Assembly (NCBI GenBank): GCA_002633005.1 | Contig: NMRA01000581.1 | Coordinates: 200,787-264,786, forward strand | Reading direction: 5' to 3' | From: Phoronis australis | Lineage: Eukaryota; Animalia; Phoronida | Length of the DNA: 64,000 nucleotides | Shown: positions 3,235-50,844 of the stretch, one piece after another | Layout of the letters: each line of letters begins with the position of its first letter | Numbering within the stretch: the first letter of the stretch is position 1 | Position numbers and translations under genes: made by a program | The notes under the pieces: generated by a model | Told to the model about the DNA's origin: nothing | The model's input: the letters and a program-made list of their open reading frames with translations, nothing else | The model's database searches: none

Positions 3235-4251
3235 TATACAAACTTCGTTAAAGGCACGACTAGACTTTTTGTTAGCAACGGTTGATACTGGTACCTTCGT
3301 AATTTCGGAACAGTCTCCTTTCTTCTGGTGTGCAGGTACATGTATGAAGTAACAGACCGAGAGACATAATAAACAAACAAAAACAGTAGCTTTATTTCGT
3401 GTATTCATGCATCAGGCAATGAGTAAAATGGACATATACACTGTTTATTTCGCTCAACTCATTACTTTTTACAAAACTGTCTCGGGCTCGTTATTGAAGT
3501 GGGCAACAACTCTGGCAGCTTCACACAGTCTTCGTCCTTCCTCCCTGTCGACAGCGTTTCGGAACCTGATGCCTGTCTCTTTTACTGTAAAGCTTGCATT
3601 AACATTACTGTGATCCTTGATCACAATCCCTGAACAACGCCTGCTTAGTATATTGGAGTACAAACTAATAGACTCCACTATTCTTTTTCCAATTAAGTTT
3701 TGCAATATAAGAATTATCTAAAGAAACTGTATACCAATCCAACACGAAACTCATTTGAAATGCATAATCAGTAACATACATGTATATGTTTCATCCTTTG
3801 TCAACACAAGTATTACAGCCGGTTGTCGTATTTCAGTTTCTTGTAATAAATATTTTCAGAAGCGACTTTTTATTCATTCTATTTCTTCTCAAAATGTCTA
3901 TTTCGTTACCATTTTAAGATCCTTAAAAATACTTCACAATCTATAACAAAAAAGTCTCATGAGCATCCATTGACGGTTTTGCTGTGTGTTTACAAACAAT
4001 TGACACTGATGTGACCTTTTCAGCTTCGTCCCCAAGCCTCAAGATGGCACTGATCGGTTAGCCACTTGAAGCTTGGTTATGGGAATTACCATCTGCGAAA
4101 TGATTGACCGATGCCCTGACGTCATTCAAACAAAGGTAGATTGTAATTATTTTCACATTGGAGCCATTCATGCGACACAAGGCATTGTTATAGTTATTGT
4201 CTGACCTAAAGGTTGTAATTATTTTCAAGTCTTATGTATGAGAAGTATTAA

Positions 4252-7200
4252 GAGACAGTCCATATAAAAACCAGTAGATTTTCAAAAATCAGTCTATACG
4301 TCAAAATTTAAAACAACTTCATTTTTTCTACATGGGTAGGTATCCTAACAAAAACCCAAATGCCAAATTTTGTGCACTCAATGACCCCTAAATTCGCCGC
4401 TGGAGCATGATAACATAAATTGGCACAATTGGGCATATTAGCCGTCTCAAAAATCGCATGTTTTCAACAACAAAAATGAGTAACATACAAAATAGATCGA
4501 AAGCTATATTTTAGTGGCTGAAATAACCAACGTATACTGTACATAATTCTGTGCCATTTATTGAAATCTGACAGTTTTGTGCTAGACAGGGGAGATAATC
4601 CACAGACCACTTTTTGGGGCTAATTTTAGTGGCCACTTTTGTGACGTTCTTACTGCCATAAAACACCTTGTAGCCTTATGTGACGTTTTGAACGTACAGT
4701 TAAAGTATTAGTCTTGATGACTGAGCAATAAAAAATCTTGCCTCAACTTTGCACCTTGGTGAAAATTGTCTTGCATAACCGTCTATTTTCATAGTTTGGA
4801 AATGACGAGCAGACTTTACAGACCATTTGAACAAACTTTTAGGCAAGAAGTCTGCTTTAAATAGTTATAGAAACCAAGTCTAAACTCTTTCAAATGAAAA
4901 CAAGATGTTTTCCGGGTCTATTACGCGGCTAGTATCAAACCCGAACCCGATGACCTTTGCCCACTGAGGGAGTCAGTTGAGGTTAAGCTTGAGGATATAT
5001 AAAAAATGTACGTGTAACCCTATTGTATTCTTTCATTTCTTTTACATTATCAGGTTAATTTAAGCACTCTGTAGAAATTTTAAATGGAAATAAATGCCTT
5101 TAAGATTAAACGAGAATGAATTGATAGTTGTAATGATTGGTTTTGAGAGAAGCAAGTGCATTTTAAAAAGACAAAATGGCGGACGATGTCGATGGGCCTT
5201 CATGTTCCTTTAGAGTTTATTCTGCAAAAAATCCGATCACAAAAGCTTTGTGCTTTAGTGAGTTATGTCAAAGACACCACTGAACATTTGAGATACAGGA
5301 AACTACCTCACAAAGCAAGGCCTGTGCCAGAGTACGCACTCGTACTACCCAGAGTCGGTGAATTTCTGAGTGAACAGGACCAGTTATGGAAGAGTCAGGT
5401 AATGCTGGATGTTACCACTCTGCTCCTCTCCTCCTGAACGTAGCAGCCTTGTCAAATTCTACCGGCATTTCTGTTTCGAGATATGACTTTAGTGAAAGTC
5501 AGAATGGAAAGGATCTCTGTGATCGCAAGATCGCTCCACTCAAACAACATGCAAAGTACTTTGTAGCCGAAGGTAAAAATATCATAAAGTTTCTGGATTT
5601 TAAAGAAGCATTACTTTCCAGTGGCCATGTGAAGGGATGTTATGTGTATGCATGTTCAGTCAATGCAACAAAGTCTTTTCCAAAATACCCAGTTCCTGAT
5701 ATAAGCACATTCCCAAATTCCCACTATTCCACCCAAGGAATTCGCGTGTGGAAATCATTGCATGTAGGTGACGGTAAGTTCGTACAAATACTGAGAAAAT
5801 GCGAAACCTATTTCTCTAAAATACACTAACATCTCTAGACATGGCGGAGTTTCAACACCAAGAGTTAAGGTTGGCATTGTATCTAGTGAAGAGCCTCAAC
5901 AAAGTTCCCTTGTACCCAGCAAGGTTACTCGAAATTTTTTGCTACAGACGCAGAACTAGGTCAGCATTTGGATGTGGGTAACTACACTGAACATTTACAG
6001 AGGGAAACCCCGTATGACCACATAGCACGACAGTGGTCAGAAATGCTTTCAGATGCAAGAACCGGAGCGTCATTTGAGGCAGCCTCAGAGTACTATTTGG
6101 ATGAGACGAATGCTGAAGCAATAGGTTAGGCATTGAAACAAAGTAAAGTGTCAACAAGATTTTCATCAAAGGTTAAGAACTTTCTGACGAACATATTCGA
6201 TGAAGGAGATAAGTCAGGTAAAAACGTTCACCCTCGGAAGAGCCAAATTGGAGAAAACATTACGAGAACCCACTGGTAAAGTATTCACCTGTGATATTAA
6301 GTGAATCGCATATTGGTGGATTTTTTCGAGGTTGTCTGCAGCAATGTTTATGACGATGCAATTTCTGCTGAAGATGCTGTTATATCGTTAGATTTACTGA
6401 ATGAAGTGGTAAATGAGCTCAACGTTTAGCCTAGTTTTGTATCATACCAGTCAAAGATGTGTGATATATGAAGTCGAGACCGTTACTTCTGTTTACTTCA
6501 TGTCTGTCATGAATGAGTCATTAATAAAATTGTCTCTCGTGAATTATATTCTATCGACTGTGAATGTCTACCTTTTTATACCACTGATGATCGCACTGAC
6601 AGAAATATTCAGCGTTAGGGTGCCCGGTGTATGGGGGGAACACCAGATTCCTGGCGACTGGTGGCGACTAAAATTTGTAAAAACCAGCAGGGACATTACA
6701 ATATGAACCCAAAGTTACAATGACTATTGACAAGTTGAAGGATTTATTGCACTGAACACTAGGGGGCCATATCCACCTTGGGTGCCTTCCTTTGCCTGTG
6801 GCACCAACAAGGCAGATAGAAAACAAGGCAGGGGTGAGTTCAGTAACACTAGAACCTTTATAACATTTATCCAAAACCACGTGTTCTCATTTAAAATGCA
6901 GGGCAATATCTCGCGAAGTCTTGAATTATAGCAAGGTCCTCGTGTTACTGCTCTTAGCTCTTGTTCTAGATGCGTCTTCAGTCTCTACGTAAACAAAAGC
7001 AGCGCCATCTACTCATTTAGAACCACGCATGCCAGTTGATTTACGTTACATATTTTTTGTAATAAGCAATAATCCTCAATGCCGTTTCCAGAGAATGGTA
7101 ATTAATAATGCTGTCTGCCTTTTCTCCAAAATACAAGGTTTTTATGTCGTATTTCGCAAGCTAATTATATGTTCCAAGAGCCCCCTATTGGCAGCAGAGG

Positions 7201-7750
7201 CAACTGAGAACCTGCAAAAGGACGAAGTGCAGTTCGTGTAAAGCTTCGTACGCATAAACTAGATTAGAGGCAAGATTTTTTATTTTAGATTATGAACAGG
7301 TTAGGAATGACTAAACAAATTATTATAAAGTCAATTTCAGGAAAGGTGCGTTATGGCTTCTACAGAGTGCCAAATTTGGCCGAAAATGGCTTCAGCGAAA
7401 ACCTGAAAAATAGCCGTTTTTGCCTCACAAATTCATAACGTACAAATTTAAAAATGGATTTTGAAAGTTATACCATTAAATTATTCAGCCACTGCGCTTT
7501 CAATTCGTATTATTCATTTGTTTTGACCTTACCACACATGCTAGTAAATTGCATTCAAACATGCCCACTTCGACGCCCAACTTTGTTGCAAAATGGAGGT
7601 ACAGGTCATAAAAAGAAAAATAATGAATGAAAATTCTTAAAAAGTGAGGTTTTTCTACATCTCAACAAACCAAACTCATGTGCTAAGTTTCAAAAAAATC
7701 GATGATTTTGGGTATAGACTCTACCTGTTGGTTTTTATATGGAGTCACTC
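4252..7750 (+). mobile_element. Sola3-type DNA transposon, internally deleted
   Basis: TTAA TSD (4248-4251, 7751-7754) and GAG...CTC termini with TCCATATAAAAACC in both ends. Patchy inverted homology extends ~490 bp (AGTGGCTGAA; AAAAATCTTGCCTC at ~4732 vs ~7268). Internal transposase fragment present. Confidence 0.75.
5386..6340 (+). pseudogene. Sola-type transposase fragment (catalytic core to C-terminus)
   Basis: SGNAGCYH (usually SDNAGCYH) ... RYDFSESQNGKDLCDRKIAPLK. Frameshifted downstream remnants HLDVG and STRFSSKVKNFLTNIFDEGDKSGK. Confidence 0.7.
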
Positions 7751-8229
7751 TTAATCTGTTTTCGAATCAAAAACATCATTTTTGCAATAATTTAGACCTA
7801 CATGTAAAATGCTGTAATATACCGTTAGTTTTCATTTTTATATAAACCTGCAGAAAATTTCCGAAATTACTCGTGATATTCCGGCAATTTCCGTAAAAAT
7901 TCTGGCACATTTCATTTCCCGTAACCAAGCCTGAAGTGACTGATCAGCGCCATCTTGAGGCTTGGAAACGAGGCTGAGTGCCGCTTACATTGTACGATGC
8001 CGCGCGTGCACAAGGTCAGCAAAGTTGTCGAAGAAGTAAACACAGCAACAAAACGGAGATTGTTTACGTTTCACAGGATCACCAATGACCCGCATTGTTT
8101 TGGATTTTGATATTTGCGACACTAACAAGAGATAGCACGGAGGTTGTTTGAAATCCCGAAAATAAGGAAAAAACATCTTTTTGAGCTCGTGTATACCACT
8201 AAGCTATACCAAGAACTACATATCCCTTG

Positions 8230-9075
8230 TTGATGCTTGGTAACAGGCATTACATACTGAATGTTCCAAACGGGTCCCAGAATTCGCCTGGAGCATGCGT
8301 TGTCTCTAGCAATAACGAAATGTCAGTTCTTTGCAAGACCGAAAAATGATTTTCATCTGGTTACGGAATAAGTTGAGACTTATTCTACAGCGTTATCCGA
8401 AGTAGTCTTTAGCAAAAAATAAGTTTCTTCGAGCGAAAGCAGGTTCGTAGCCGGTTTAAAACGATCACTTGACATTGCTGTACATACGCCTACCTGCACG
8501 TGGTAACATTCGTGGATATTGGGGGAATTCTGGGTAAATATCATTAATGTAATATACTCTAGTGTTGGCTCACGAAGGAATTGATCAACTCCGTCGGTTC
8601 TGACCGGTCAACCGGTTTCGACATGTGACTGCTCTGCAAGCAGAAAATTGACGCCTTAGGTGGTTGATCGAGCGGAACCGACGAAGTCTATTAAGTGCAG
8701 CCCGGCATGTGTTACAGAATCGAGTCAAGGTTTTCCTACCTAAACAGGTACTGTCCTGCTATCTAACTTTGTGCAGGGAACCAGTCTGTAAAATGTTCAG
8801 TGCAAATCGTAATGGAGGCTGTGTCACGAGTTGTTCTCTCGTTTTGCGCTTGAAAAACCAGTTACGTACATGTACATGTACGTATTTTCATCTTTTCTCG
8901 GGTTGTACTATACCTGAAAATATGAGGAACGTAGCAAAGTATTGGATCAAAGATTACAAGTTTCAAACAAAGCAAAATAAAACTGATTCCAAAATGTTTC
9001 CATGTTTTACGATTGCCACAAATGATTGCAGCTGGCCACTCCATGAAAACGAACAAATTTACACAACTATAAGCT
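8230..9075. repeat. Diverged dispersed repeat homologous to ~31830-32440 and ~1440-1760
   Basis: Shared collinear blocks: TCTTTGCAAGACC, ATTCTACAGCGT, AAAACG.TCACTTGACATT, GCAGCTGG..ACT.CATGAAAA.GAACAAA. Confidence 0.65.
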
Positions 9076-9952
9076 AAATTTGTATTTGAAGGGTAAACCT
9101 CTCAGTCATTTTTACATGAGGTATGTGACTACTACAACCTGGAAAAAATATTTACAATGATAAATTGGATTTTGAGAAATTCCAGGCAAAGTGGTCTTCT
9201 TTTTTGCCTAACTAGCTTTTATAGGGTCCGATAATGTTCGTAATTTGTTTGATGTACACTTAACTAGATTTCATATTGCTGCACAACTATGTACTGGTTG
9301 GTTGAGTTAATAAATGTTTCATCATGAAAAAAAACTCTCAAGATGTACAAGAGATATATATTCGGGTCATATAGTAGTCCCTTCACAGATGACTTTGACA
9401 TCTTACGGCAACAGAGAAAACTACCCGTTTTGCTCAAGCCATATGTCTGCAAAAGTTCAGCTGTTTACCTCTTTCTCTTCACTGTAATGTATACTGCTCA
9501 AGGCAACGGCTGTGAAAATTTCTATGTTTAATATCTATTGAATACCCCATGTATGTATAAGGTATACCTGTATTTTTTTAAGTTTGAAAGCACCACTACA
9601 GTGTGAAATGTTTTGCCGGATTTTCGATGTAATTGGACTTGTTTGTTGACTGTTATATCGTCTGCATTTAACTTCGGTTTCGCCATAAGCGAATCTGGTC
9701 TTAAGTTTTCTAAGGAAATTCGTTTAGTTTGGGATACTAGTTAATTTTAATACCGTAGAAATCTAGGAATGGAATGTCAACTTTGACCTCGCGCGACTGA
9801 TGTTACGCTGCGCATGCGTGGCAGCATTCTTTTGAGTGCTACCACTGCCTCGCCCATAAGCGTAACCTAAAGCCATCTGGACGTATTTCAATAATTTCGA
9901 AAGCTTGCAAATTTCCTTAAGATATATCCATATGATCAAAATCTTGAGCTGC

Positions 9953-10057
9953 AGTACGATTCAAAGATCCTGTGCCATGGACATTTAAAGAAGAATACCA
10001 CCCGTAGTACGATTCAAAGATCCTGTGCCATGGACATTTAAAGGAGACTACCACCCG
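9953..10057. repeat. 53-bp tandem duplication containing a possible Kolobok-like terminus (TTAA|AGG)
   Basis: AGTACGATTCAAAGATCCTGTGCCATGGACATTTAAAG... starts at 9953 and again at 10006. The second copy continues TTAA AGGAGACTACCACCCG. Confidence 0.7.
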
Positions 10058-11649
10058 ATTTCATTAGTCTTTTTACGTCCTAATCGGTCTATATCCACAT
10101 CGCCCTTATACGGTCGACCTCACCTTGCCGAGAGGTGTCGTGTTAACCTGTGAGGAAGATGAGAAAGGACGCAGCGACGTCAGTGGTTCATCTACATAGA
10201 GAATGCCGCATCGTTCCCGCTTGTCCGAACTATGAAGCTGCGAAGAAAGCGGGTATAGACCTAACTCGGCGCGGAGGACATTAAAATCCAAAGCGAGGCT
10301 CACTGCGATAAATAAAGCGGAAGTTCACATTACGTGAGTTAAATGGCCTGCCTTTCGAGTCCAACCTGGATATTAAATCGTAAAAATGTGTCAATAATTA
10401 ACTACAGAGAAGTAGAAAAATACATTAGAGAGCAAGTCAATGTACCAAAGAGTTGTCTGACGAAAGGGTATATTTTTTTCGGAAAACTAGTTTCGAATCA
10501 TGAAAAGTGAATAATGACCAAATTGCGGCGATCGTAGTGTTACGGATTAGGTATTATGGTGAATGCAGGGTTACGTTTCTTCCTGTAAATTGTTGATAAT
10601 GCTTTCTACACGAACCAGGTCATCTGCTCGTATTGTTGACGAGTTGAAGATAGATTCAGCAGTGGTGGCTCATCATATTTTGCTGCGATGTGCAATAAGT
10701 CACATCTGGTTTAATGTTTTGATCAAGCATAGCCTAGGTCCAGGTGAGGTAGGGACTACCGGGACTAATAGTTGATTTGTCATTGATCTGAAAGAATAAT
10801 TGATTTTATCAAATATATTTTTTATTAAAATAAATAACTAGTCTTGTAATTGAATATAAAAATTACTCGAAAATCAATTCTGTTTTCTTGGTTTTAACAA
10901 TTCTTACGTCTATTTGATGTTTCAAATATCAATCTGGACCAAGTTGAATTTTAAAATTAAAAAACCTAATTCGTTCGTCGAAAGTATAATCTTGATTAAG
11001 AGCTCAATTTCAGTTAACTCGACAGAGCAAGCATAGTTATCATGTTTCTTCAGGGGCCTCGTTGTCCGAGGGGAAAGGTGCCTATGCCTTCAGTGAGAGG
11101 CGAATTTTTTCGCCGAGTGATGGGAAAATCTATCCCCCGGTCACCATCAATGACACCCCGCAAGTTCTCAAGTAGCATTTTCTGCTCGTTCAAATTGTCA
11201 CCTGTGTGGTTAGGTAATTTGAACTTCGAAGAGAAATTTTCAATCACCAGGAGAATTTTTAGACCACCGGTGGGGGGGGGGGTATTTCGCGTGAATTTTT
11301 AATATTTTTGAGAGAGGAATAGGGAGGATGTTCAGCCCCAAAATCGAGAGATTGAGGGCCCTGTCCTTTATTGAAAGAAAAATGCATAATGTTTCAACCC
11401 GCAGTCTTTTAAACACAGCCTGGCTGGCCGAAGATTCTCCGGTTGTTGCTATGATGCTCGGCAACCGAGAAGTGCAACAAAATATGATCTAAATTTTCGA
11501 AAACACTTATAAATTTTACACGGACATATTTTCCTTCGTTGCGGCGTCTGGCAACGACCCCACGCTTCCGAATCTCTACGTCCTTAGGGATTGTAAAACA
11601 GACAGTTGAATGGCCGCGTTGTATCCGTTCGAGCTACGCGAAATACCAC

Positions 11650-11730
11650 TACCGTATTCGCCGTAATAACCGCCCATGCCCCTACAAGCGCTGCCCACGC
11701 GTTTTCAGACTTTGCTGAAATAAGCGCCCA
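11650..11730. mobile_element. Tc1/mariner-pogo-like terminus (partner end not found)
   Basis: TACCGTATTCGCCGTAATAACCGCCC...AATAAGCGCCC resembles TA|CCGTA termini with repeated ATAAGCGCC motifs. Confidence 0.4.
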
Positions 11731-12685
11731 GTCCATGAATGTGTACATGCGAACAATGACGTACCTACATTCCTAAAACTCGGCTACAGTAACGTCTTCA
11801 ATTCATGGAAACATTTTTGTACCGGTCTTCTTGACCACCAGCGGCACTGCATCGTTTGTATTTAGCAGTGACTTTACACTTCCGACGCAGCGCGCTTCAA
11901 AGGGAACGCAACAGCGTTGCTACGCTCTCGCGACGAACGTGTCCCACTATGTGGTCTGACCTTTCAGTAGACACATCGACTGTGACAGTCGATGTGTACT
12001 AATGAATAAAAATAACTCGGTGTTAAACGCACGTGGCCAGGAAGCGCGCGCTACACACATGAACCTGTCATCACAGACATTAGTCGGGAACTATCCATTC
12101 ATGAAACGGATAGCATTGCATCGATAACAAATGAATATTGGCACTAATTTCCGACAATTTCTAATACTATAAAACATGTTTGCGTTATTTTTGAGATGGA
12201 TTGTTTGATTAACCATAATTGGTGCTTTTAAGCCGAATATCCGATAAAATGACAACTGACAGTGAATGCTTACACACTATTACACCATAGATTATAGACA
12301 ACAGATTCGCAACTCCGGCATATTCTTACGAGCTGAGCTGAACTCTCCTGACCTATCTGCTGCAGTTTCCGGTCAGTGTAATTTGACGAGAAATACTTGC
12401 ATCTACTTTACAGTCCAAAACAGCGAAAAAACATTAATTCATATTAATTTCGGTATTGAAACGCTTTTCAGTCTTTCAATAGTAGAAGTGTTGGTATTGT
12501 GAGTACTTTTGGCTATGCTACTGGTAATTAATTTCAAAATTCAAACTTCGGTTCCGACCCTTTATGTCGTCTGCTTGCCCAATAGCAGCATAGTTATCGG
12601 ACAGTTTTTGATTTACGGTTCACATAGGCCTACTGTTTATAAATCAACATTCTCAAGTGAGCAGTTCTTCTGGGAAGTGTTGAGT

Positions 12686-12701
12686 GGCCCTTAAAAGGGC
12701 C
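12686..12701 (-). promoter_or_regulatory. Histone-mRNA-type 3' stem-loop (distal copy), followed by an HDE-like tract
   Basis: Minus strand: caaccaac GGCCCT TTTA AGGGCC actca. A 6-bp stem/4-nt loop fitting GGYYYU-UYUN-ARRRCC with A/C-rich flanks. CAGAAGAACTG (12672-12662) starts 13 nt after the stem. Confidence 0.85.
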
Positions 12702-12726
12702 GTTGGTTGTAGGTATAGCGTGAAAT

Positions 12727-12742
12727 GGTTCTTAAAAGAACC
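12727..12742 (-). promoter_or_regulatory. Histone-mRNA-type 3' stem-loop (proximal copy)
   Basis: Minus strand: ttcaac GGTTCT TTTA AGAACC atttc, 10 nt after the TGA of the PHD ORF. Confidence 0.8.
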
Positions 12743-12752
12743 GTTGAATAAT

Positions 12753-13070
12753 TCAACATAAATCACACAGTATACCATGCTCACTCAAGTACTGAAGGTC
12801 CTCTTCATTAAAGTTTTCATCTGGAAAGGTTGGATGAAAACAGAGGAGATGACAATATCGATGACAGTTGTAACACCTTAGATAGATATCACCGTTCACC
12901 AACGTTGTCACGAACCCTGCATCGTTCAGTTCTTGTTCCTGTATCCACAAATAATCCTGAACTGTAGGAAAAAAATGACAAACAACACAACGAATCAAAT
13001 TTCGAAAATCATCGCCTTCGTACGATTCCGTGTTGCTGTCACCAGACTGATGTTCTTCTCCAACGTCCAT
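12753..13070 (-). CDS. Small intronless PHD-finger (C4HC3) protein, 105 aa, with acidic N-terminus
   Basis: From ATG 13070: MDVGEEHQSGDSNTESYEGDDF, then C-x2-C-x34-C-x2-C-x4-H-x2-C-x24-C-x2-C with the stop right after the last Cys. Followed by two histone-type stem-loops. Confidence 0.7.
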   Translation of the reverse strand: MDVGEEHQSGDSNTESYEGDDFRNLIRCVVCHFFPTVQDYLWIQEQELNDAGFVTTLVNGDIYLRCYNCHRYCHLLCFHPTFPDENFNEEDLQYLSEHGILCDLC

Positions 13071-13356
13071 CGTAAAAAATCGACGTTGCAAGTGATGGAA
13101 ACTTGTCTACGCTCTCGTCCTTTGTTTCTAACCTTTAACCCATTTTTTAATAAAGGGGTGTACTGTTTTTGGCTCATGTTGATAGTGCATAATCTATGGT
13201 TTTACAATGTATTAATAGTGTTAAATGCATATATATGAACTGGTCTCATTGAGGTGCACAGCAAATAAATTAACTATAACAAATTAAAGTTTTGAAAATA
13301 TAAAGAGCAGTAACAGACTCCCTAAAAATTAGGCTTGTTTTCGAAAGGTTTGCGCC

Positions 13357-13396
13357 ATTGGTGATCCGATTGGTTCAATCGCTTGCGGCGGGAAAA
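13357..13396 (-). promoter_or_regulatory. Putative promoter: E2F site plus two CCAAT boxes
   Basis: Minus strand TTTTCCCGCC (13396-13387), CCAAT (13373-13369) and CCAAT (13361-13357), about 290-330 bp upstream of the PHD ORF ATG. Confidence 0.5.
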
Positions 13397-13561
13397 TTGA
13401 TAGACCCAGTTATTGTGCGCGTGTACACTGTATCAATGCTTTGTATCTTATTCTTATTTGTCTAATCTGTTGATACAGTAAATTTCCTTATTTATGCCCA
13501 TCCTGATTTAACCCCGACTTGAGCTCCTTGGGTTTTACCATATTGGGGCTGTCCAGGGACT

Positions 13562-13716
13562 CACGTGCATGCGCGCACCCAGTCTTCAAAATGGGGGGCT
13601 CGAATTCCTGACGTTATGGAACTGTTGTTAACAAGAGAGCGGGCAGACCTTTTTGCCCACTTCGCCAAATGGGGGGGGGCTCGAACCCCCCCCCTCTGAG
13701 TTGCGCGCATGACGTG
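13562..13716. mobile_element. Short MITE-like hairpin element, copy 1
   Basis: CACGTGCATGCGCGCACCCAG ... CTGAGTTGCGCGCATGACGTG inverted ends; internal GGGGGCTCGAA shared with copy 2. Confidence 0.55.
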
Positions 13717-13980
13717 GTGCTTACTCGAATGAGTTTCATTTTAGCGGCTATTTCCAATTGTGTAGGTGAAGTAAATTAACAAAGTGGATGATTATCATCA
13801 CCGGTATTTCATCATTAGTATTTTTGTCGGCCTCTCAAGTTTTCCGTGGCTAGGGATTGTCACATCTGTAAGGTAGACGTGTTTCAGTGAACCTCCATGT
13901 TTGTGGCGTTATTTATACCTGACCAAACTTTGAAAAAGAAGCCCGCGTTTAAACCAGGAGCTGCATTGGGTGCAATTTGT

Positions 13981-14158
13981 GTAGACGTTTCATGCGCGCA
14001 CCCAGCCTCTAATACGGGGGCTCGAATCTCTGGCAAAGTGGACCTTTTGCTAACAAAAAGCGTGAGAACTAAAATAAAAAACGGGGTGCTGCCGTATTGT
14101 GGACTTTCGTCTCTTTCTCTTGGACTTTTCCCCTGGGTGCGCGCATGCGTTTGTCTAC
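13981..14158. mobile_element. Short MITE-like hairpin element, copy 2
   Basis: GTAGACGTTTCATGCGCGCACCCAG ... CTGGGTGCGCGCATGCGTTTGTCTAC inverted ends. Confidence 0.6.
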
Positions 14159-14895
14159 GTTGCTAGTTTTTATAAAGGTGGGCCTGTCTGTAGCCAACTA
14201 CGGTAAATTCATAAAAGGTCACGTGCAGTGCAACTCAAGTTCATTACAAATTAAAAATCCGAACTTTCAAACCGTTTGATCTGAGTTGACATCTCAAATC
14301 AAAATTATGAAAATGCCACATAAAAGTATGAAATTGAAAATTAGCACACGTCAGCTTCACGTCCCTACCACCCCCTTTATCTTGCTTGCTACCTCTTAGG
14401 GTTCATTTCCCTTGCTTCCGAGGTTTTTCGTTATTCTGGTATTTTCATAGACTGCAGCGTACTTGGCTAAGATGGTTCAAGTTTTGTGCGGCATACAGTC
14501 GACATAAATAATTGAGTATGTAACCTGCTGTTGAATTGCGGGATAGATTTTGACAGGTCCAGGTATTTATTTCTGAAGTATTAATGTAATCTTTATTTAT
14601 GTTAAAGGTTTTACTAGCGTCCTATTTATTTGTACACGAATGTGAATTTGTTGAAATCGCTGATCCAAATCCTGGCCAAATCTGCGCATTATGCTGAGAC
14701 CAACCGTCTGATCAGGGCCACTGAAGAGTAATTTGGTTAATTCGCTCACTAGACTATGGCTGAAGGTCCTCGTAAGGACAAGAGTTCACCAGTCACTACC
14801 ATTGGAAGAAATTTAGCGGACATTTTTCGTCAAAAAGTTTACCAGATAGTTTTCATCAAAACGGAGAAAAGAAAAATGGATTTGTGAAGACAGGA

Positions 14896-15117
14896 TTAAG
14901 TAGTAGGCCTACCAGAGCCTCTTAAAAAACACCCATCTTCGAAGTGACGTGAACAAATGTACAAGTTTTTTTTGGAAGAACAACTTCCATTCACGTCGAC
15001 GCGAGAACATAACTTTTTCTCCCACAGCGGATTTTGGGGTCTCCGTACACTATGGAAGCTAACGCCTCTGCAATTCGCCTGCGTAGCCGAACAACCGGCC
15101 ACACAGCAGCCGACCAT
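14896..15117 (-). pseudogene. THAP zinc-finger ORF, probably the 5' remnant of a DNA transposon
   Basis: MVGCCVAGC...VSFH...W...ICSRHFEDGCF is the THAP C2CH signature. It stops before the AVPT box, and no transposase follows. Confidence 0.7.
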
Positions 15118-16067
15118 GATTAGCAGACGACGTACTTGCCGGAAATTACATCGGATAATTTAGCCAGGTGTCGCCAGTGAATAATGACGTAAGGGCTTGT
15201 GCGCAAGCTCAAAGATTTCGTCCATTGAAAGTATACGGAGTTGGCGGTCCATGCACTATAGTCTATGATTACACCGAAAAATAATTGTAAGATACTTACC
15301 TACGCATCCACCTACACGGCGACTAATATGGGCCTTACCGAGACAAATGTCGAAAGTTTTTAGCACGAGACCGGCAAGTGCTGAATGAAACACGCTCTGG
15401 TTTAGGCCTACTGCTTGTGCAAATTTCTTTAGACACATCTACTAGCTAGTTAATTAGATTGCGTGGCTCTGGCCAAAAGACGGTCTCTGCTTTGGCAAAT
15501 GAACTCTGTGACACGCACGCGCTCGCTTACTCGCAGACGAACTTCAAAACAAAGTCACGTGACAACAACATGTGTGTTCGTCCAGTGGCAAAATAACCTT
15601 TTTTACTCTCGCGACATCTAGCGACCAGATAGCGTTTTGATGACATGCGCGTTAATAGAATGACCCGAGTTTTCACAAGTGGAGGAGTTTTTATATAGGA
15701 AGTAAATACTTGCGGAGGTCGGTTTTCAAATTACACTGCAGTTGTATTCTTTGATAATTTGTAAAGGTGTAAACAAAAATACTCCAAGTCTATAGCCTCT
15801 GTGCTTATGATGTACCTCGCATTTTGCCTAATATAACATTCGATATAAGTAATTGGCTTGTAAAATGCACACTTTATCTATTCAGCAGTCTTACACAGTA
15901 GGTCACAAAGCCGATGTTTTGTTTATTTAACGCTGCATGGTTGTCAATACTTGCATTTGAAGACAATATGTTCATCTAATCAGATTTTGAATTTGTCAAT
16001 GCCCCAATAACATGCAGTGCTGCGAACACAAACCAATTTGCAAATGTGAGGAACTGGCCGTACTAAT

Positions 16068-16392
16068 CAGTGGCGGATCTATGATACCATGGCATAAGGG
16101 GGGCCCAACATGTTGCCTCGGGAAATTGTGCAAGGTGTGATTGGCGTAGGCAGCCCAAAAGGTGAGGGAGCCAGCCTGTGGAGGTGCACCTTCCGTTCAG
16201 TAAAATCTACCATTCGACTAAAAAAGGAGCAGCCACTCCGCGGCAACCTGGACGTTCACCGCTACCGGTCCTACTTCCTAGACTCAATATTTCCTCACGC
16301 TCCGCTCTGTTGCTCTTTCATTTTGCTTGCGGCAGCTAACGGGGGGAAGGGGGGAGCGGGTCGTGCTCCCTGGGCCCCCTAAATCCGCCTGT
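16068..16392. mobile_element. hAT-like MITE (CAGTGGCGGAT terminus)
   Basis: CAGTGGCGGATCT ... CCCCCTAAATCCGCCTGTG with G/C-rich subterminal tracts. TSD not clean. Confidence 0.55.
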
Positions 16393-18012
16393 GCTAATTC
16401 CCGTGAATTCTAAAGGTGTTTCTTAAGTCAAGAGGTAGTTCTTCTTGGTAAATGGAAATGTAATCCTATCAAGGTAAAAACTATAAGAACATTTTATATG
16501 CGTAAAGCGAGGTCTTATTTCATTTCTTACAGCTAAATGGTGTGCAATGAAGCCTAAAGTCAAAAATAGAATGTACATGTAGGCTAATTTCAACAATCTG
16601 AACACCATAAAACTTAGCGTAAGAAGAAATATTGCATTTACCATCAGAGTAAACAACATAGAATTTGTAGTTTGCAGGTGATTCATTTTATTTTACATTG
16701 TTTCATGACACATAAGAACTATGTTTAAGGATCTGTATTTCTAGATATACAATATTAGTTAGCATTGATGAGACTTATTCAAAGCAGGCACCTGCAGAAC
16801 AAACGAAGTCTCAAACAACTGAGGAAGAATAAAAATGATCATTGTATAATTTGAAATAAAAATCTCATACACACTGAATAGAGGGCTATAGTCGAATATG
16901 GCATAACCAAACTTTTGAGAACCAGTTTGATGCCTATTATTTAGTGGAGAAACTAGTTCACAAAATGCGCCACATCTGGCTTAACGCTGTGTCTTATCCA
17001 CGTGCAACTCGCAATTTTCAACCTGTTGCAACATTTTGCGTACAAATACAAATTTCGAAATACATATTTTACAAATGTTAGACTTTATTATTTAGAAAGA
17101 CAAGGATACCCACTATAGTTTACATTTTCAGAAAAGAAATAGTTTTGCAATACAAATAATTACGTGCACACAGCTAAGAGAATGGCAAGTCAATGGGTAA
17201 CTTGTTATTAAATAGGTGTAGCTTATAAATGAATGCCCCTCTGACTAAACTTGTTCTTATTGAAAAACATGCTTTTCCTTGTTCTGTGGATGTTGCTAAA
17301 GAGGGCTTCAAGTTATGCATTCAGCATTGCAGTGATTGCTCAAAACAACCAACCACCTTCCAAATGAACAACCCATCCCCTCAAAACAGATGTATTTTTA
17401 TCCTAAAATATAATTACAAATAATTTACACCAAAACAACAGCAACACTGAGTACTGAGAATGGATGTTTATTGTTATCAAATATTGACTACAACTTGATG
17501 CAGAGTATGTTATAGAACATCATCAGTTGTGTTGTTGTCAACACTTTCCAACATTTGAGCACTTTGGAAATAAACTGGCATCTAAACTGATGCGAAAATA
17601 ATAAATAAGGCCAGTAGGTGACACAATACAACTTATCCATCTGAAAATAAAATAAGTACTGTAAATTTACAATGATTGGTGAAATGCCTATAGATAAACA
17701 TTAATTATTAAACAACATTTTTTCAATGTAGTAAACCCAGAATTCCTAACCCAAGTCCTTAGGAGTTTAAAATATCACTAATATAGTTCTTGAGTCATTT
17801 GAATCGGGAATAGATCGTTTTCACGTGTTAGTACCAAGCAGGCCAATTGTAAAATACAGTCAACATCAAAGAGAAGCTGCAAACAAAAAGACTATTCCAA
17901 AGCATTAGAACAGCAACTAGATGAAAAAATGCATACTACTCACAACGTAAACACCAAGGAAAATATGATTATTGTTTTTTTAAGTGATATCCATTGCCAA
18001 ATCTGTACAGGA

Positions 18013-20278
18013 GTTTTTTAAGTGATATATATTTATTGAAGAATACACAGAACATACAAAGAAATAATAATAAACCCAGAAACCTCGAAGCATTATATCT
18101 GGGTTGTAAACAATTCATCAATGATACTTATATACATAGAGGTATATACAATTAAGTACTATCTATAATAAGTATTCCAATAATTAGATATGCAATTACA
18201 GATATATAAAAGCAAAAATATGTACAGATTCATGTAGGGAAATCAGATGCAACAATATTGATAAACGGTACATAAAAATTTATTAACGTTGCTTAGGAGG
18301 AATTCGTTGAGAACGAAGTTGAAGTTTAGAACTATCATTCAATAATAATGTAACTCTAGTAGGGATATTATTACAAGAATTTAGAGCGTTAACAATTGAT
18401 TGGTTTGCATTGAGTGCACGAAAGAGTGAGTCTCTCAGGTATTCGATGAGGGGACATTTGAAGAAAATATGAGGATAAGATTGATGGTCACCACATTTAC
18501 AGTTTGGAGAGACATTACTTAAGTTGTGCCTGAACTTGTCAGAGGTGAGGAAAACGCCACATGTTGATCTGTACAATGCTATTTCGTTATCGCGGGTAAG
18601 GGAGAATTGAGTCAAGGGTGTTGAGTTATCAANATGAGGATAAGATTGATGGTCACCACATTTACAGTTTGGAGAGACATTACTTAAGTTGTGCCTGAAC
18701 TTGTCAGAGGTGAGGAAAAGGCCACATGTTGATCTGTACAATGCTATTTCGTTATCGCGGGTAAGGGAGAATTGAGTCAAGGGTGTTGAGTTATCAAAAT
18801 TATGAAAAACAGTTCTAAAGTTATTTTTATACTCGTAAAAGACTTGCTTTCCTTAACAGAGATTGGAAGAGAATTCCAGTTGTTGATGCACATGACTGTA
18901 GACCTTCTGAATGCCTGACTGAACGACGGGGGAATTGCATAAGGGGTGGAGGATCTCAAATCACTATGATGGCCTTGTCTAGTATATAGATCAAATATTT
19001 TTTTTAACAGACACATTGTTAACATTGTTTATTACCTTGAAAGTAAATGTGGTCATGTGAATATTGCGTCGAGTAGACAGTTTGGGCCACTTGAGACTAT
19101 TCAAAACCTTAACACTATTGGATCCCCTGTCAGCTCCGGTTATGAGTAAGGCGGCTTAATATTGTAACTTCTCCAAATGTTGGAGTGCACCCGTATTGGC
19201 AGACTGATATATAATATCACAATAATCAATGTGTGGAAGTATAAAGGATTTGAACAAAACTTCTAAATGTGTAGAATTCAGATGATGAGAGACAAGCTTA
19301 AGTGGGTTAATTAGTTCCTGAGTTTTTTGTACGAGCTCCCGAACGTGAGGGGTGAATGAGAGTTTTTCATCTAACAGTATACCCAGATGTCTGTGCGACT
19401 GTTTTCTAGGAATGATTTCATCATTAAGTTTAAGGTCATAAGACGGGTCAACAAGAAAGAGAGCATTAATAGATTTGGAGAAGGTGAGGTCAACGCTTTT
19501 TTCTGGTTTAAAATTCATTCTTCATTCTTGTGACCAGTAGCTGAGTTTATTTAAGTCGTGTTGAAGCTGCAAAGAACATTCAGGGCTGCTCCCTGCGAAG
19601 GGGTAAAAAGCGCCGTGTCATCTGCATAAAGGTATGTGCTACATGACAGGTTATCAGGAAAATCATTAATATAAACCAAGAAGAGAAGAGGGCCTAATTC
19701 GCTACCCTGCGGTACACCTGCGTTTACAAATCGAGGAGGGGATAAAGTTGAAAGTACGCCGTCGACACGAACACTGTATGTTCTTTCGGAGAGATATGAG
19801 GTGATCACGTTTAAAAGATTACTAGTAATGCCATAGGATCGAAGTTTGTGAAGTAGAAGGTCGTGAGGGACACAGTCGAAAGCAGAAGCTATATCTAGAA
19901 AAATGGACCTGACACTCTCGCCCTTCTCAAAATATAAATGAATCTCATGTACTATTGCAACAAGTTGTGCCACGGTGCTGTTCCCACGCAAAAAAAAAAC
20001 AAATTGACGATGATAGATCAAGTTGTTTTGTTTGAGAAATGTAAGAATACTTTGAGCAATGATCTTCTCGAAGATTTTGGACAGGGTGTTAAGTAAAGTT
20101 ATTGGGCGATAATTTGAAATTTCAGTTTTGGAGCCTTTTTTGTGTATAGGGACCATAATTCCATGTTTCCAAGAAGACGGATATATACCTATCTGAAGAA
20201 GTTTGTTAAACAGATTGGTCAGGGGCATGGTAATTTCGTTGGCAATCATTTTGATCATCTTACTGGTTATTAAAGCTG
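18013..20278 (-). mobile_element. 5'-truncated non-LTR retrotransposon (CR1/L2/Crack-like) with broken RT ORF
   Basis: YRPITLLNTLSKIFEK, FLDIASAFD, GVPQGSELGPLLFLVYIND, YADD, HRHLGILLD, PHIDYCDII and C-terminal CKCG..H..C across ORFs 19551-20258, 19156-19518, 18777-19025 and 18283-18780. AATAAA at the 3' end; candidate TSD TCTGTACAGGA (18002-18012, 20279-20289). Confidence 0.92.
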
Positions 20279-21628
20279 TCTGTACAGGAATTGACGATGA
20301 ATGGTGTGAAAACAGTAGTTGACAAGCAGTAGAGAGTGACCTGTAAGCACTTAGACAAGCGCTATAAATTCTTTGGTTTCTTGTGATTTACAGTACGTAT
20401 GTCCAGACAGACGCTGAGTGTCCCAATGACCACGGTAGTTGAATTGAACTACACGCTAATGTGTGTAACTTGGAGGTAAAATTTTCTTTTTGATAAATGT
20501 TTCATTAAATTCTCTACTGTCATTGTTGATTTTTGAGAAACTTTAACTGCAGTACCTATAGACGCACAGACTTAATGGATCACAAATAGATAACATTGAC
20601 GAATAAGGTGGCCTGGAAAGTTGACGTTATCTAACCTCAGATTTTTGTAGGGTGTGACAGGGAGTTTTTTCAAATGTAGTTTTAATTTGCGATAGTATGT
20701 GCGTGCGTCAGAAATGCGGTTTGAGTTTAAAGTCAAACATTCAAACAACGACTTGTTAAGGTTCTTTGGTTGACTTAATGTTTAAATGTAACTTTATTCG
20801 TAGTTTGTCGACACAACTTGTTACACAAATAAACCAGGAAATATTATTAACATAACGCAAATCAATGACAACACAAACAACAGTTTGATAATTTCAGGAA
20901 AAAAATTAAACTGTAATTTAATAAATTTAATATATTTGGTGATAGAATGCCGAACTTACTCGAATTTGTCAACGTCGATTAGTTTTTCAAAACACCGTTT
21001 CAATGTGCCTGAAGTTTCTGGGCTCGAGCTTGGAGAAAAAAACTCCGGAAATTCAAGTTTAAATGAATTGTTGTGATGTGCATTGAAACTAATCGTGATC
21101 GCCCAATCGGTTACAATCTCCAAAAGTGGCGTGCCCAGTGCATTTTCAGGCAATAATCGCTGAAAGTTTCATCAATTTCCCCTCAAAACTAAAAAACTTT
21201 AGCAATCAAATGTGAATGACATCATAGGCTCAAATCACTTCCAAACAATTCAAGCGCAACCAAGAATGGCGAAAACAAGATATCATCACCTTTAACCCAA
21301 AGATTTGAAACGAACACCTGGACACGTGACCACCAAAGTTAACACAAATTATTCTTACACCAGCCTGTTTTAAGTAAATTTTTGAATATTTTTCTGCACA
21401 TTAGCAACCTATGGGAGATCAGTTGAAAAATGAATGGGTTTTATCCTGCCAAATAAGCATGTCATATTAAAGTTTAGTCGAGTCTCGACTCAAAAAGTGA
21501 CCAATCACGCAGCATGAAAACTGGTAGTCACCAGGGCTGTGTTGTCAAAATACATCAAATAGAGAAGTGATTTATTTACAGTGATGAAATAAACACTAAT
21601 TTTCCTTATATAAGCTTGCATAAATACA

Positions 21629-28127: not shown

Positions 28128-29253
28128 TCAGACATGCAAAAAAGCATATTCCAGAGCCGTAATATACATAATTTCCGGAGAACTTTTTGACATTTTCAAT
28201 TTTGGTGGATTCGGGACATCAAATATTGTTGGCACAGCATTCCACACCAGCTTGTGCTTCATAGAATTCATGAACATGGACTCCTCGAAGTGATGAGAGC
28301 ATAATTTGCAGTTCTTGGACAAGTAGGCTGCATCTCTATTCATAAAGTCGGCTCCCAGCGCTTGCACCTTAACAGAAATCAATGAGAGACTCAGGAACAA
28401 ACCGCATACTGACCAGGTTCATAGAAGACTGGTAGCCTACACTACACTGCACTGCACTGCACTGCACTGCACTGCACTGCACTGCACTGCACTGCACTGC
28501 ACTGCACTGCACTGCACTGCACTGCACTGCACTGCACTGCACTGCACTGCACTGCACTGCACTGCACTGCACTGCACTGCACTGCACTGCACTGCACTAC
28601 AAAAGTCCTGTCGCACCGTGCTTGTGAAAGAGACAAAACTGTCTTGGTGTTAACTAAAAAAACTAGGACTCAAATATCGATCGACGGATATTTTAAGGGC
28701 CGCGTCTCCGCATCATTGGCGCATAGAAATAAGTTTTTATTGACACACTGCTTAACTTGAACCAACTGAAACATTAAAATTATGTCGATTTTTTCATCTT
28801 TTCAACGAGACCCACAAATTCTCTAACTTGACTCATGACAGACTTGAGGCCGCCCTGTGACTGTGATTGCGGCCATGTCACCAGTCATTCACTCATAGCC
28901 ATCGGTATGTTAACCTAAAATTATGCGTGCTATCGTTCGGTAACATTTTGATTTAAAATACATGGACTGCAAAGTATCCAAAAAGCTGAAGATCACATCG
29001 TTAATCGTAGTCCTTCCGCCGGCAGCTCTGTTGTGCAGTAGGCCTAGCCTGCAATGTAGACAACAGTGGCACAGGGACTGCGATCGATTTGTCTTCCAAC
29101 CGTGAAAAAAACATACAAAACGAAAGACACTATGAATAACAGATAATCCTTACCTTTTTGGATCCTTAGGAAACCTAAAAAAATGACACGTCTGGGGTTT
29201 TCGTGGATGAATTAGTGCAGTTTATCGCACTGTAAAATGTGCCCTTCCCCCAT
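28128..29253 (-). pseudogene. Spliced THAP-domain remnant (exon 29253-29154 and exon from ~28367)
   Basis: MGKGTFYSAINCTNSSTKTPDVSFF(+1 T)RFPKDPK|gtaagg ... ttaag|RCKRW then, after a frameshift, CKLCSHHFEESMFMNSMKHKLVWNAVPTIFDVPNPP. Confidence 0.8.
28445..28594. repeat. (CACTG)30 pentanucleotide microsatellite
   Basis: Perfect tandem CACTG units. Confidence 0.98.
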
Positions 29254-30596
29254 TGCTTTGGCGCTTCCTGGTTGACCGTTGCTTATTCACCACTAGGCGG
29301 CGCTACTACTAGCGGTAACCGAGAACTCACAAGTGAACTCCCCTATACAACTACACTCCTTGCTCCAATACCCTGGGTCTGGAGTACGTGCACTTCAACC
29401 CAATCAGTTAATATTTTTTTAGATTTTTGCAGTTTACGTGTTTGTGAAAATTGAAGCGACTCACTGTGAAAGAATAGACGGCAAAGATGAGAATAGTCCT
29501 AATGTAACGATAACTTTTCTCAATCATACGTTTCCTGGGCCCAACTTCATCCTCTTTTTCAACGGACAGTTTGACGTTTCCGTTAATGTCTTTTGAATTT
29601 TGACAGTCGGCCATATCGCTACTTCCAATGAAAATCGCCTCTCTTTGCATTTTCANNNNNNNNNNAGAAATAAGTTTTTATTGACACACTGCTTAACTTG
29701 AACCAACTGAAACATTGAAATTATGTCGATTTTTTCATCTTTTCAACGAGACCCACAAATTCTCTAACTTGACTCATGACAGACTTGAGGCCGCCCTGTG
29801 ACTGTGATTGCGGCCATGTCACCAGTCATTCACTCATAGCCATGGGTATGTTAACCTAAAATTATGCGTGCGATCGTTCGGTAACATTTTGATTTAAAAT
29901 ACATGGACTGCAAAGTATCCAAAAAGCTGACGATCACATCGTTAATCGTAGTCCTTCCGCCGGCAGCTCTGTTGTGCAGTAGGCCTAGCCTGCAATGTAG
30001 ACAACAGTGGCACAGGGACTGCGATCGATTTGTCTTCCAACCGTGAAAAAAACATACAAAACGAAAGACACTATGAATAACAGATAATCCTTACCTTTTT
30101 GGATCCTTAGGAAACCTAAAAAAATGACACGTCTGGGGTTTTCGTGGATGAATTAGTGCAGTTTATCGCACTGTAAAATGTGCCCTTCCCCCATTGCTTT
30201 GGCGCTTCCTGGTTGACCGTTGCTTATTCACCACTAGGCGGCGCTACTACTAGCGGTAACCGAGAACTCACAAGTGAACTCCCCTATACAACTACACTCC
30301 TTGCTCCAATACCCTGGGTCTGGAGTACGTGCACTTCAACCCAATCAGTTAATATTTTTTTAGATTTTTGCAGTTTACGTGTTTGTGAAAATTGAAGCGA
30401 CTCACTGTGAAAGAATAGACGGCAAAGATGAGAATAGTCCTAATGTAACGATAACTTTTCTCAATCATACGTTTCCTGGGCCCAACTTCATCCTCTTTTT
30501 CAACGGACAGTTTGACGTTTCCGTTAATGTCTTTTGAATTTTGACAGTCGGCCATATCGCTACTTCCAATGAAAATCGCCTCTCTTTGCATTTTCA
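28725..30596. other. 931-bp near-identical direct duplication across a 10-N gap (probable assembly/haplotype overlap)
   Basis: 28725-29655 equals 29666-30596 except ~4 substitutions; the junction is the N run at 29656-29665. Confidence 0.85.
30406..30555 (-). pseudogene. Copy A exon 1 (150 nt; duplicated at 29465-29614)
   Basis: MADCQNSKDINGNVK...YRYIRTILIFAVYSFT|gtgagt, paralogous to exon 1 of B and C. Confidence 0.8.
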
Positions 30597-49801: not shown

Positions 49802-50844
49802 CTAAGACTCGTCAGAAATCACAACTTCATTCACAATATCATGCCATTCCCCTGCACGTGCTCGTCTTTTGGCACGTTCTTTCCTGTCTCCTCTCCAACA
49901 ACCGGCTGAGTACATAAGCAGTGTGAAAAATGTTGCCAAGGCAATGCTAACAAAAGCGAAATAGAGAATATACTGCGGACCGTGATATTGAAGCAGAATA
50001 CCAGAAATCAACTGACCAGAGAGCCCTCCCAATGCTGAACTGATATCGAAGAGTGCGCAGAGGATTCCGGAAACGACCATGTAGTTGTTCAAAAAAGACA
50101 GACCGGCTGGTGTGGTTGGTCCGTAGAAGAAAGCTGAAGAAACGGCGAACACCCAAAGATATATTCTCTTGCTTGTACCGAAATAGCATAAGCACCCCCA
50201 GCAAACCGTTGAGCTGAGCAAAAAAGGGAAAAATGTGTACTGTGTGGAAACACGAAAACTTAAAATGGACACAAGTGCGCGACTTGCACACTGCGCCAGA
50301 GCTTGCATTGAATCCAGCAAGGCTGCATCCTGCTTTGAAGCCGCTAACCCGCTCTCCACGGCGTATGTCATTAAATACCCGTTAAGAATTTCGTCTGAAT
50401 TTCTTGCACAATACGAGAAGAGTATAATGCCGAAACACATGAAAGTTCCGAACACACAATTCCCTTCAGCACATGATGCGGGGTTTAGGAGAGATTTTAG
50501 GGGGGTGTTTTCCTTTGTAGCTGTTTCTTTCACTATTTTGTCCGTTTTCTTGAAATACAATAATACAAGTATAATACCGGTAGACGCAAAAATCCCACCT
50601 ATTATGCCATATGGTATTTCAATTCGCGACGGCTTCCAGTTGGCATCTTCAGTCGTTGAATTTCGCCCAGCCAACTTTGTGACGTCATAACCGGTTGCAT
50701 TATTCTCACCTTGGTTGAGAGATCCTAAGAAGGGTAACATAAGTAACGAAGCAGCAAACATGCCGATTGTTGAGAAACAGTATGCAGCGTTGAGTACAAC
50801 CGGTGCTTTCGTCGTCCACAAACGCAGAAATGCGTAATTGCAAG
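49802..50844 (-). CDS. Copy C exon 4
   Basis: ttttag|CT TGC AAT; open multi-TM frame ending VVISDES*. Confidence 0.92.

Follow-up and report, generated by a model that had tools for sequence, protein, structure and literature searches.

Why would a small gene that does not encode a histone end in two histone-type stem-loops? The question is raised by a 64 kb stretch of Phoronis australis DNA (hereafter the window, to which all coordinates refer), on the minus strand of which two such hairpins follow the stop codon of an open reading frame (ORF) for a PHD-like zinc finger. We favour the reading, to which we assign a probability of roughly 0.55, that the hairpin pair is the present or past histone-type 3′ end of a transposon-derived PHD-like gene. 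The hairpins and their flanks, the gene and its relatives, and the copies of the locus in the species are taken up in turn below, followed by the explanations that compete with this reading.

The hairpin pair and its 3′ flank

The proximal hairpin, SL1 (GGTTCT-TTTA-AGAACC; 12727-12742, minus strand), starts 10 nt past the stop codon and the distal hairpin, SL2 (GGCCCT-TTTA-AGGGCC; 12686-12701, minus strand), starts 51 nt past it. Their starts are 41 nt apart, the gap between them is 25 nt and CAAC lies 5′ of each; the twin arrangement, the spacing and the CAAC flanks described in an initial annotation of this DNA could all be reproduced. Against the Rfam family RF00032 (Histone3), SL2 scores 36.0 bits, above the gathering cut-off of 34, and is the sole gathering-level Rfam match across the window. 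SL1 stays under the cut-off with 22.8 bits and an E-value of 0.0064 despite its 16-nt consensus. Searching both strands for the strict histone-consensus hairpin returned two sites in the window, namely SL1 and SL2, where the expectation under a base-composition model is 0.004 for single sites and about 6e-9 for pairs. Within 12640-12760, the minimum-energy fold contains both hairpins, with a z-score of -4.56, and none of 200 shuffled sequences was equally stable. A chance origin is ruled out by the composition model and the shuffle test, and the proposed identity of SL1 and SL2 as true stem-loops of the histone type is borne out.

Stem pairs 3 and 4 are not the same in the two hairpins, and this covariation had been taken as a mark of structural selection. 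That suggestion is weakened; from two copies, an old duplication followed by compensatory change and two captures are inseparable. The hairpins of mouse H2a (GGCUCU) and fly H3 (GGUCCU), as given in the accessible part of PMC3884669, also differ at stem positions 3 and 4, and both variants at this locus thus fall within the ordinary variation of histone hairpins. Selection on the structure of the hairpins is plausible.

The arrangement resembles a metazoan replication-dependent histone 3′ end in its 6-bp stem, 4-nt loop and G-C pair at position 2, in the U that occupies the first and third loop positions, in a 3′ flank ending with CA, in a purine-rich element about 15 nt downstream, and in having an intronless ORF and no nearby poly(A) signal (neither AATAAA nor ATTAAA is present in the 786 nt downstream on the minus strand). 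It departs from histone genes in that the ORF is a non-histone one and the hairpins are two, the first being 10 nt from the stop codon; moreover, it is known from DNA and its processed end is a predicted one. Cleavage is predicted after 12681, at the end of the ACTCA flank of SL2 (12681-12685, minus strand) and 5 nt beyond the stem; the prediction is modelled on histone pre-mRNA and on the cleavage distance stated in a figure legend of 10.64898/2026.10.14.759114.

Downstream of SL2 lies a stretch, rich in purines and like a histone downstream element (HDE), consisting of CAGAAGAACTG and the next bases (12655-12672, minus strand), which is a candidate for pairing with U7 snRNA. The sequence CAGAAGAACTG itself occupies 12672-12662 and begins 14 nt after SL2. 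Such a stretch had been ascribed to the distal hairpin only, and the composition of positions +12 to +22 agrees with this, with purines at 7/11 positions after SL2 versus 4/11 after SL1. The purine core GAAGAA begins at +16 after SL2, and in the mouse H2a substrate, according to the accessible text of PMC3884669, AAAGAG begins at +17. Using a mouse U7 5′ end taken from a published oligonucleotide, which the available portion of its source says targets the first 17 nt of U7, the 35 nt after SL2 pair with -10.6 kcal/mol; this value, obtained with the mouse U7 and not that of the host, is marginal, since an equally good pairing occurs in 5.9% of random windows (n = 3982) and in 2.5% of shuffles (n = 2000). 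The sequence after SL1 gives -4.7 kcal/mol. Two small structures are also predicted on the minus strand: a weak hairpin of the 3′ flank of SL2 and the HDE-like element with downstream sequence (12684-12644), which could mask the latter, and a hairpin at 12743-12757 in which the 5′ flank of SL1 would pair with the stop-codon region.

The stop codon is separated from the conserved 26-nt element by 46 nt for SL2 and 5 nt for SL1. Since the range for histones is 25-60 nt in the part of 10.64898/2026.10.14.759114 available to us, the spacing of SL2 fits that of a gene end and that of SL1 falls outside it. A termination codon is followed by a barrier of roughly 15 nt, as described in the accessible text of PMC12775136, so that SL1 would sit under the terminating ribosome. 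SL2 is likely to be the processing site, because SL2 has the HDE-like element and lies at a usual spacing from the stop codon, neither of which holds for SL1. The binding of two SLBP molecules to the pair is possible, judging from the sequence.

The PHD-like gene and its transposase-linked relatives

The gene that carries the hairpins is a non-histone, PHD-like one, a point absent from the initial annotation and more surprising than the pair itself. Its ORF is intronless and intact (12753-13070, minus strand; stop codon TGA at 12755-12753) and encodes 105 amino acids, comprising an acidic N-terminus and a stand-alone C4HC3 PHD-like zinc finger. None of the 69 stop-free frames of at least 62 amino acids in 1-21,000 matches a histone domain of Pfam, and with a PHD-like ORF in this place a histone gene or pseudogene upstream of the hairpins is ruled out. 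The ligands occur in the order C28, C31, C66, C69, H74, C77, C102 and C105 and are conserved in the family alignment. This C4HC3 order is shared with PHD3 of MLL1, PHD6 of MLL3/MLL4, Pygo and the NSD-like PHD fingers, which are the best structural matches; unlike these known PHD fingers, the window protein stands alone and carries 34 inserted residues between its first and second ligand pairs.

The Pfam PHD match of the window protein is below the cut-off (E-value 0.88). Its AlphaFold model has a pLDDT of 81.7, and in a structure search against 48,161 chains the top nine matches are all PHD-containing, with a best Z of 4.8 (none reaching 5) and an rmsd of 2.5 over 59 residues. Foldseek, run with an earlier model, gave a best E-value of 0.026, a fold search of BFVD returned nothing at an E-value of 0.001 or less, and the PHD-type neighbours in the ESM Atlas, at only 0.85-0.88, are a lead at best. 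RING-variant domains, for example the C-terminus of SLX1 (E-value 0.068), have the C4HC3 pattern as well, and the finger may, on its sequence, be a RING-variant instead of a PHD.

Among the ORF variants found in reads, 10/18 substitutions are synonymous and 12/18 are at the third position (p 0.013-0.025 under transition-weighted nulls). These 18 substitutions come from 40 of the 417 variants, in which alleles and paralogues are mixed, and are a modest sign of selection on the encoded protein. Upstream of the ORF, two CCAAT boxes (13373 and 13361) and TATA-like stretches (13275-13373, minus strand) lie at a distance of 200-300 nt and form a possible, weak promoter. Close pairs of CCAAT are common (10 among 140 sites of the window) and six ATGs, one of which opens an overlapping 60-codon frame, intervene before the start codon, in contrast to the short 5′ UTRs of histone genes; we therefore give this candidate little weight.

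A word search with the ORF alone found two proteins and a full HMMER search eight, including a phage-like repeat protein that was spurious and was dropped. A profile search could then assemble a family of 23 proteins of 77-169 amino acids (E-value 4e-24 or less), for which the literature searched holds no description. One member, P0021, is DPMN_041554 of Dreissena polymorpha, and another, P0001, from an independent assembly, is near-identical to the window protein (96% over 77% of the query). Compared with Pfam at an E-value of 0.1 or less, 15/19 aligned members match PHD_NSD and 13/19 match PHD. No longer, fused PHD form was found among 7988 candidates of 196-2000 amino acids, which is weak evidence.

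Genomic neighbours are available from nine metagenome loci, of which eight (L003-L010, from two assemblies) were counted and L011, with a spurious match of 27 residues, was excluded. In seven of the eight, the homologous PHD ORF is followed by sequence matching the transposase of L004. This transposase matches DUF7869 (PF25273), a type we take to be Sola-like. In four of the loci (L004, at 2165-2171, L005, L006 and L007), 6 nt separate the PHD stop codon from the transposase ATG, a tight two-ORF layout that suggests a possible termination-reinitiation arrangement in an animal DNA transposon. The Dreissena model likewise continues into transposase sequence (60% over 40 amino acids), and this join of a PHD with 40 residues of transposase probably arose as an artefact of gene modelling across a transposon. 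Every neighbour known for the family is a transposase of the DDE type. The window ORF is like the PHD ORFs of L003-L010 and Dreissena in length, acidic N-terminus and ligand spacing; unlike those of L003-L010, which have transposase behind them and no hairpin, it stops at the last Cys and is followed by the hairpins. The last Cys is also the C-terminal end in P0002, P0006 and P0023, and P0024 stops there or shortly beyond, whereas the transposase-linked members have a nine-residue tail. The window protein is 38% identical to the L003 ORF over 99 amino acids and about 40% identical to the transposase-linked group, from which it is separated by a long branch (1.71); in a tree of 25 sequences it groups with P0002 on a long branch, with an unsettled placement.

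The presence of transposase behind seven of the eight homologues, the Dreissena model and the diverged copies in the species itself (see below) favour a mobile origin, and the PHD-like gene probably derives from a DNA transposon. Within the window, tblastn of five transposase stretches found no transposase of the DUF7869 type (best E-value 0.37), and no convincing pair of terminal inverted repeats surrounds the ORF in 7500-18500 among 25 of the 243 pairs found. IMG/VR holds no true viral relative of the family, two loci that matched over only 10 residues having been dropped, and no relative was found in the genome-contig collection. The histone hairpin was found in none of the eight loci L003-L010, either by Rfam at an E-value of 1 or less or by pattern. 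This is the main result that speaks against an old link between ORF and hairpins, and conservation of the link across species thus appears unsupported.

Copies and RNA reads in Phoronis australis

The gene lies in an interspersed repeat (12002-13440; ends undefined) which is of low copy over the ORF and hairpins and of higher copy over 12002-12330. It was compared, at 80% likeness, with one contig set (X1) and three RNA-seq runs of the same species. Reads less than 90% alike number 257/536, 215/431 and 14/61 in the three runs, that is, about half in X2 and X3, and short indels occur within the ORF in a minority of reads, some copies being frameshifted. Several diverged copies therefore exist. 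Some reads join 12371 directly to 12989 (six in X2 and three in X3) and others have loose ends at 12989 (32 in X2 and 16 in X3); together these joins and breaks point to copies that lack the PHD core and the hairpins. Among 40 of the 417 variants, none is inside the hairpins.

A contig of X1 departs from the window at 12711 and continues for 255 nt in a different upstream sequence. It appears to keep SL2 and about 48 nt downstream, with three listed differences just before the purine core, and the module of SL2 and HDE is thus probably present behind a second, different sequence. The contig may come from a histone gene or from another non-histone gene that shares this end module.

The three RNA-seq runs, whose libraries are unsuited or of unspecified selection and in which the copies are mixed, list no accumulation of molecule ends at the hairpins. 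The depth of RNA-seq reads runs past 12681 and the hairpins in both orientations. Given this continuous depth and the lack of an end pile-up, a cut near 12681 and an mRNA expressed as a discrete species remain predictions. The variants in 12540-13440 are dominated by A>G (92) and T>C (70) versus G>A (23) and C>T (28) in X2; this excess is seen in X2 and X3 and is absent from X1, and could stem from A-to-I editing of repeat RNA that is double-stranded, or from decay of the window copy.

Competing readings and the wider window

If the hairpins serve the PHD-like gene in the way that we favour, RNA polymerase II would transcribe the ORF on the minus strand, SLBP would bind SL2, the U7 snRNP would pair with 12672-12655 and CPSF73 would cut near 12681. 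The resulting mRNA would be short, would lack poly(A) and would be translated and degraded on the histone schedule, in S phase or through storage in the oocyte. SL1 would not direct cleavage but be retained in the message, where it would be a relic or a further place for SLBP to bind, and the encoded finger would bind chromatin as a free protein. We infer every step of this processing from established histone biology. This reading is supported by the strand, the stop spacing, the HDE-like element, the lack of a poly(A) signal and a real, conserved ORF. It is weakened by the eight homologous loci without hairpins, the absence of an RNA end pile-up, the deletion copies and the lack of a transposase in the window, and further by the long branch, the marginal match to mouse U7 and the six upstream ATGs. 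A fuller version, which we consider less likely than not, would have the PHD gene as the first ORF before the transposase in one lineage and, at this locus, turned into a mimic of histone genes; its mRNA, lacking poly(A), bound by two SLBP molecules and timed like that of histones, would give a free chromatin reader at the time and place of nucleosome deposition in dividing cells or eggs.

The hairpins could, instead, be inert here, a decayed non-autonomous repeat having passively taken parts of host histone 3′ ends beside a leftover PHD ORF; selection on the hairpins would then have acted in the histone genes and not at this locus. The homologous loci without hairpins, the patchwork of repeats, some copies of which are frameshifted or deleted, and the lack of an RNA end in the RNA-seq runs are all in keeping with such a capture, and SL2 with its roughly 48 nt behind other sequence in X1 could be the donor. 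However, one would then have to put the strand, the intact stop codon, the normal distance of SL2 and the spacing of the HDE all down to coincidence; the 69 stop-free stretches of at least 62 amino acids in 1-21,000 include no remnant of histone coding sequence, and the synonymous excess in the ORF would be left over. We consider passive capture rather unlikely.

Domestication offers another account, in which the PHD ORF has long been out of its transposon and is a host gene co-regulated with histones, the other copies being paralogues or pseudogenes. The window without a transposase or terminal repeats, the long branch apart from the transposase-linked proteins, the intact ORF and the occurrence of the near-identical P0001 outside this assembly would suit it. 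Both flanks are nevertheless repeated and have deletion forms, as for an interspersed element, and the reads hold no discrete transcript; a domesticated host gene is therefore improbable in our view.

It is very improbable that the locus is a fragment of a Polinton-like or viral element in which each small gene ends in a histone-type signal. The module of SL2 and HDE common to a different upstream sequence in X1 is what such an element might show, but there is no true relative and no twin-hairpin pattern in IMG/VR, no Polinton-type domain (polymerase, integrase, ATPase or capsid) among the 69 frames in 1-21,000, and the known family neighbours are all DDE-type transposases. Lastly, that the pair provides two alternative U7-dependent 3′ ends, as had been proposed, is very unlikely, since SL1, although its stem, loop and CAAC flank are retained, is followed by no purine-rich element (-4.7 kcal/mol with mouse U7) and, only 10 nt past the stop codon, lies inside the barrier of about 15 nt described in the accessible part of PMC12775136.

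The twin-hairpin pattern was absent from the prokaryote genomes as well as from IMG/VR, and a single hairpin with the CAAC flank was likewise absent from IMG/VR. A looser pattern gave six matches in IMG/VR, which are ascribed to chance; all overlap long open frames on either strand and none is just past a stop codon. A literature search, outside which lay most subscription papers and all supplements, found no report of tandem stem-loops or of transposon or Polinton genes that carry histone stem-loops. According to the accessible text of PMC4604434, no cellular mRNAs other than the histone ones are known to be non-polyadenylated, and CLIP of SLBP in HeLa cells gave no real non-histone target. 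If the reading that we favour is true, a transposon-related PHD gene in the histone 3′-end pathway would break this exclusivity, and would give selfish DNA a means of being expressed in step with S phase or with maternal storage. A natural pair, of which one hairpin has an HDE and normal spacing and the other has neither, would also be a test of a second SLBP site and of the distance between stop codon and hairpin. The locus thus appears to combine a signal of known type with an undescribed gene family of putative function.

The remainder of the window is animal-type DNA with paralogues of the major facilitator superfamily (MFS), a LINE and an LTR element. On the minus strand at 14896-15117, a 73-codon ORF encodes a THAP domain (Pfam E-value 4e-08) with no transposase core behind it and is probably a transposon remnant; it was considered as a partner of the PHD gene and no tie was established. 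Nested inverted repeats (4020-4058/7939-7977 and 4247-4273/7729-7755) surround decayed ORFs at 4020-7977, which looks like a terminal-inverted-repeat element. The minus strand further carries a decayed LINE reverse transcriptase (18286-20387) and at least three paralogous, tandem MFS transporter genes (22700-52800), with a match to Pfam MFS_1 at 49805-50887. An LTR element with reverse transcriptase and integrase and a 132-nt direct repeat pair lies on the plus strand at 52924-57395. A repeat of 99% identity at 28725-29965 flanks a gap of 10 N (29656-29665) and is probably an assembly overlap.
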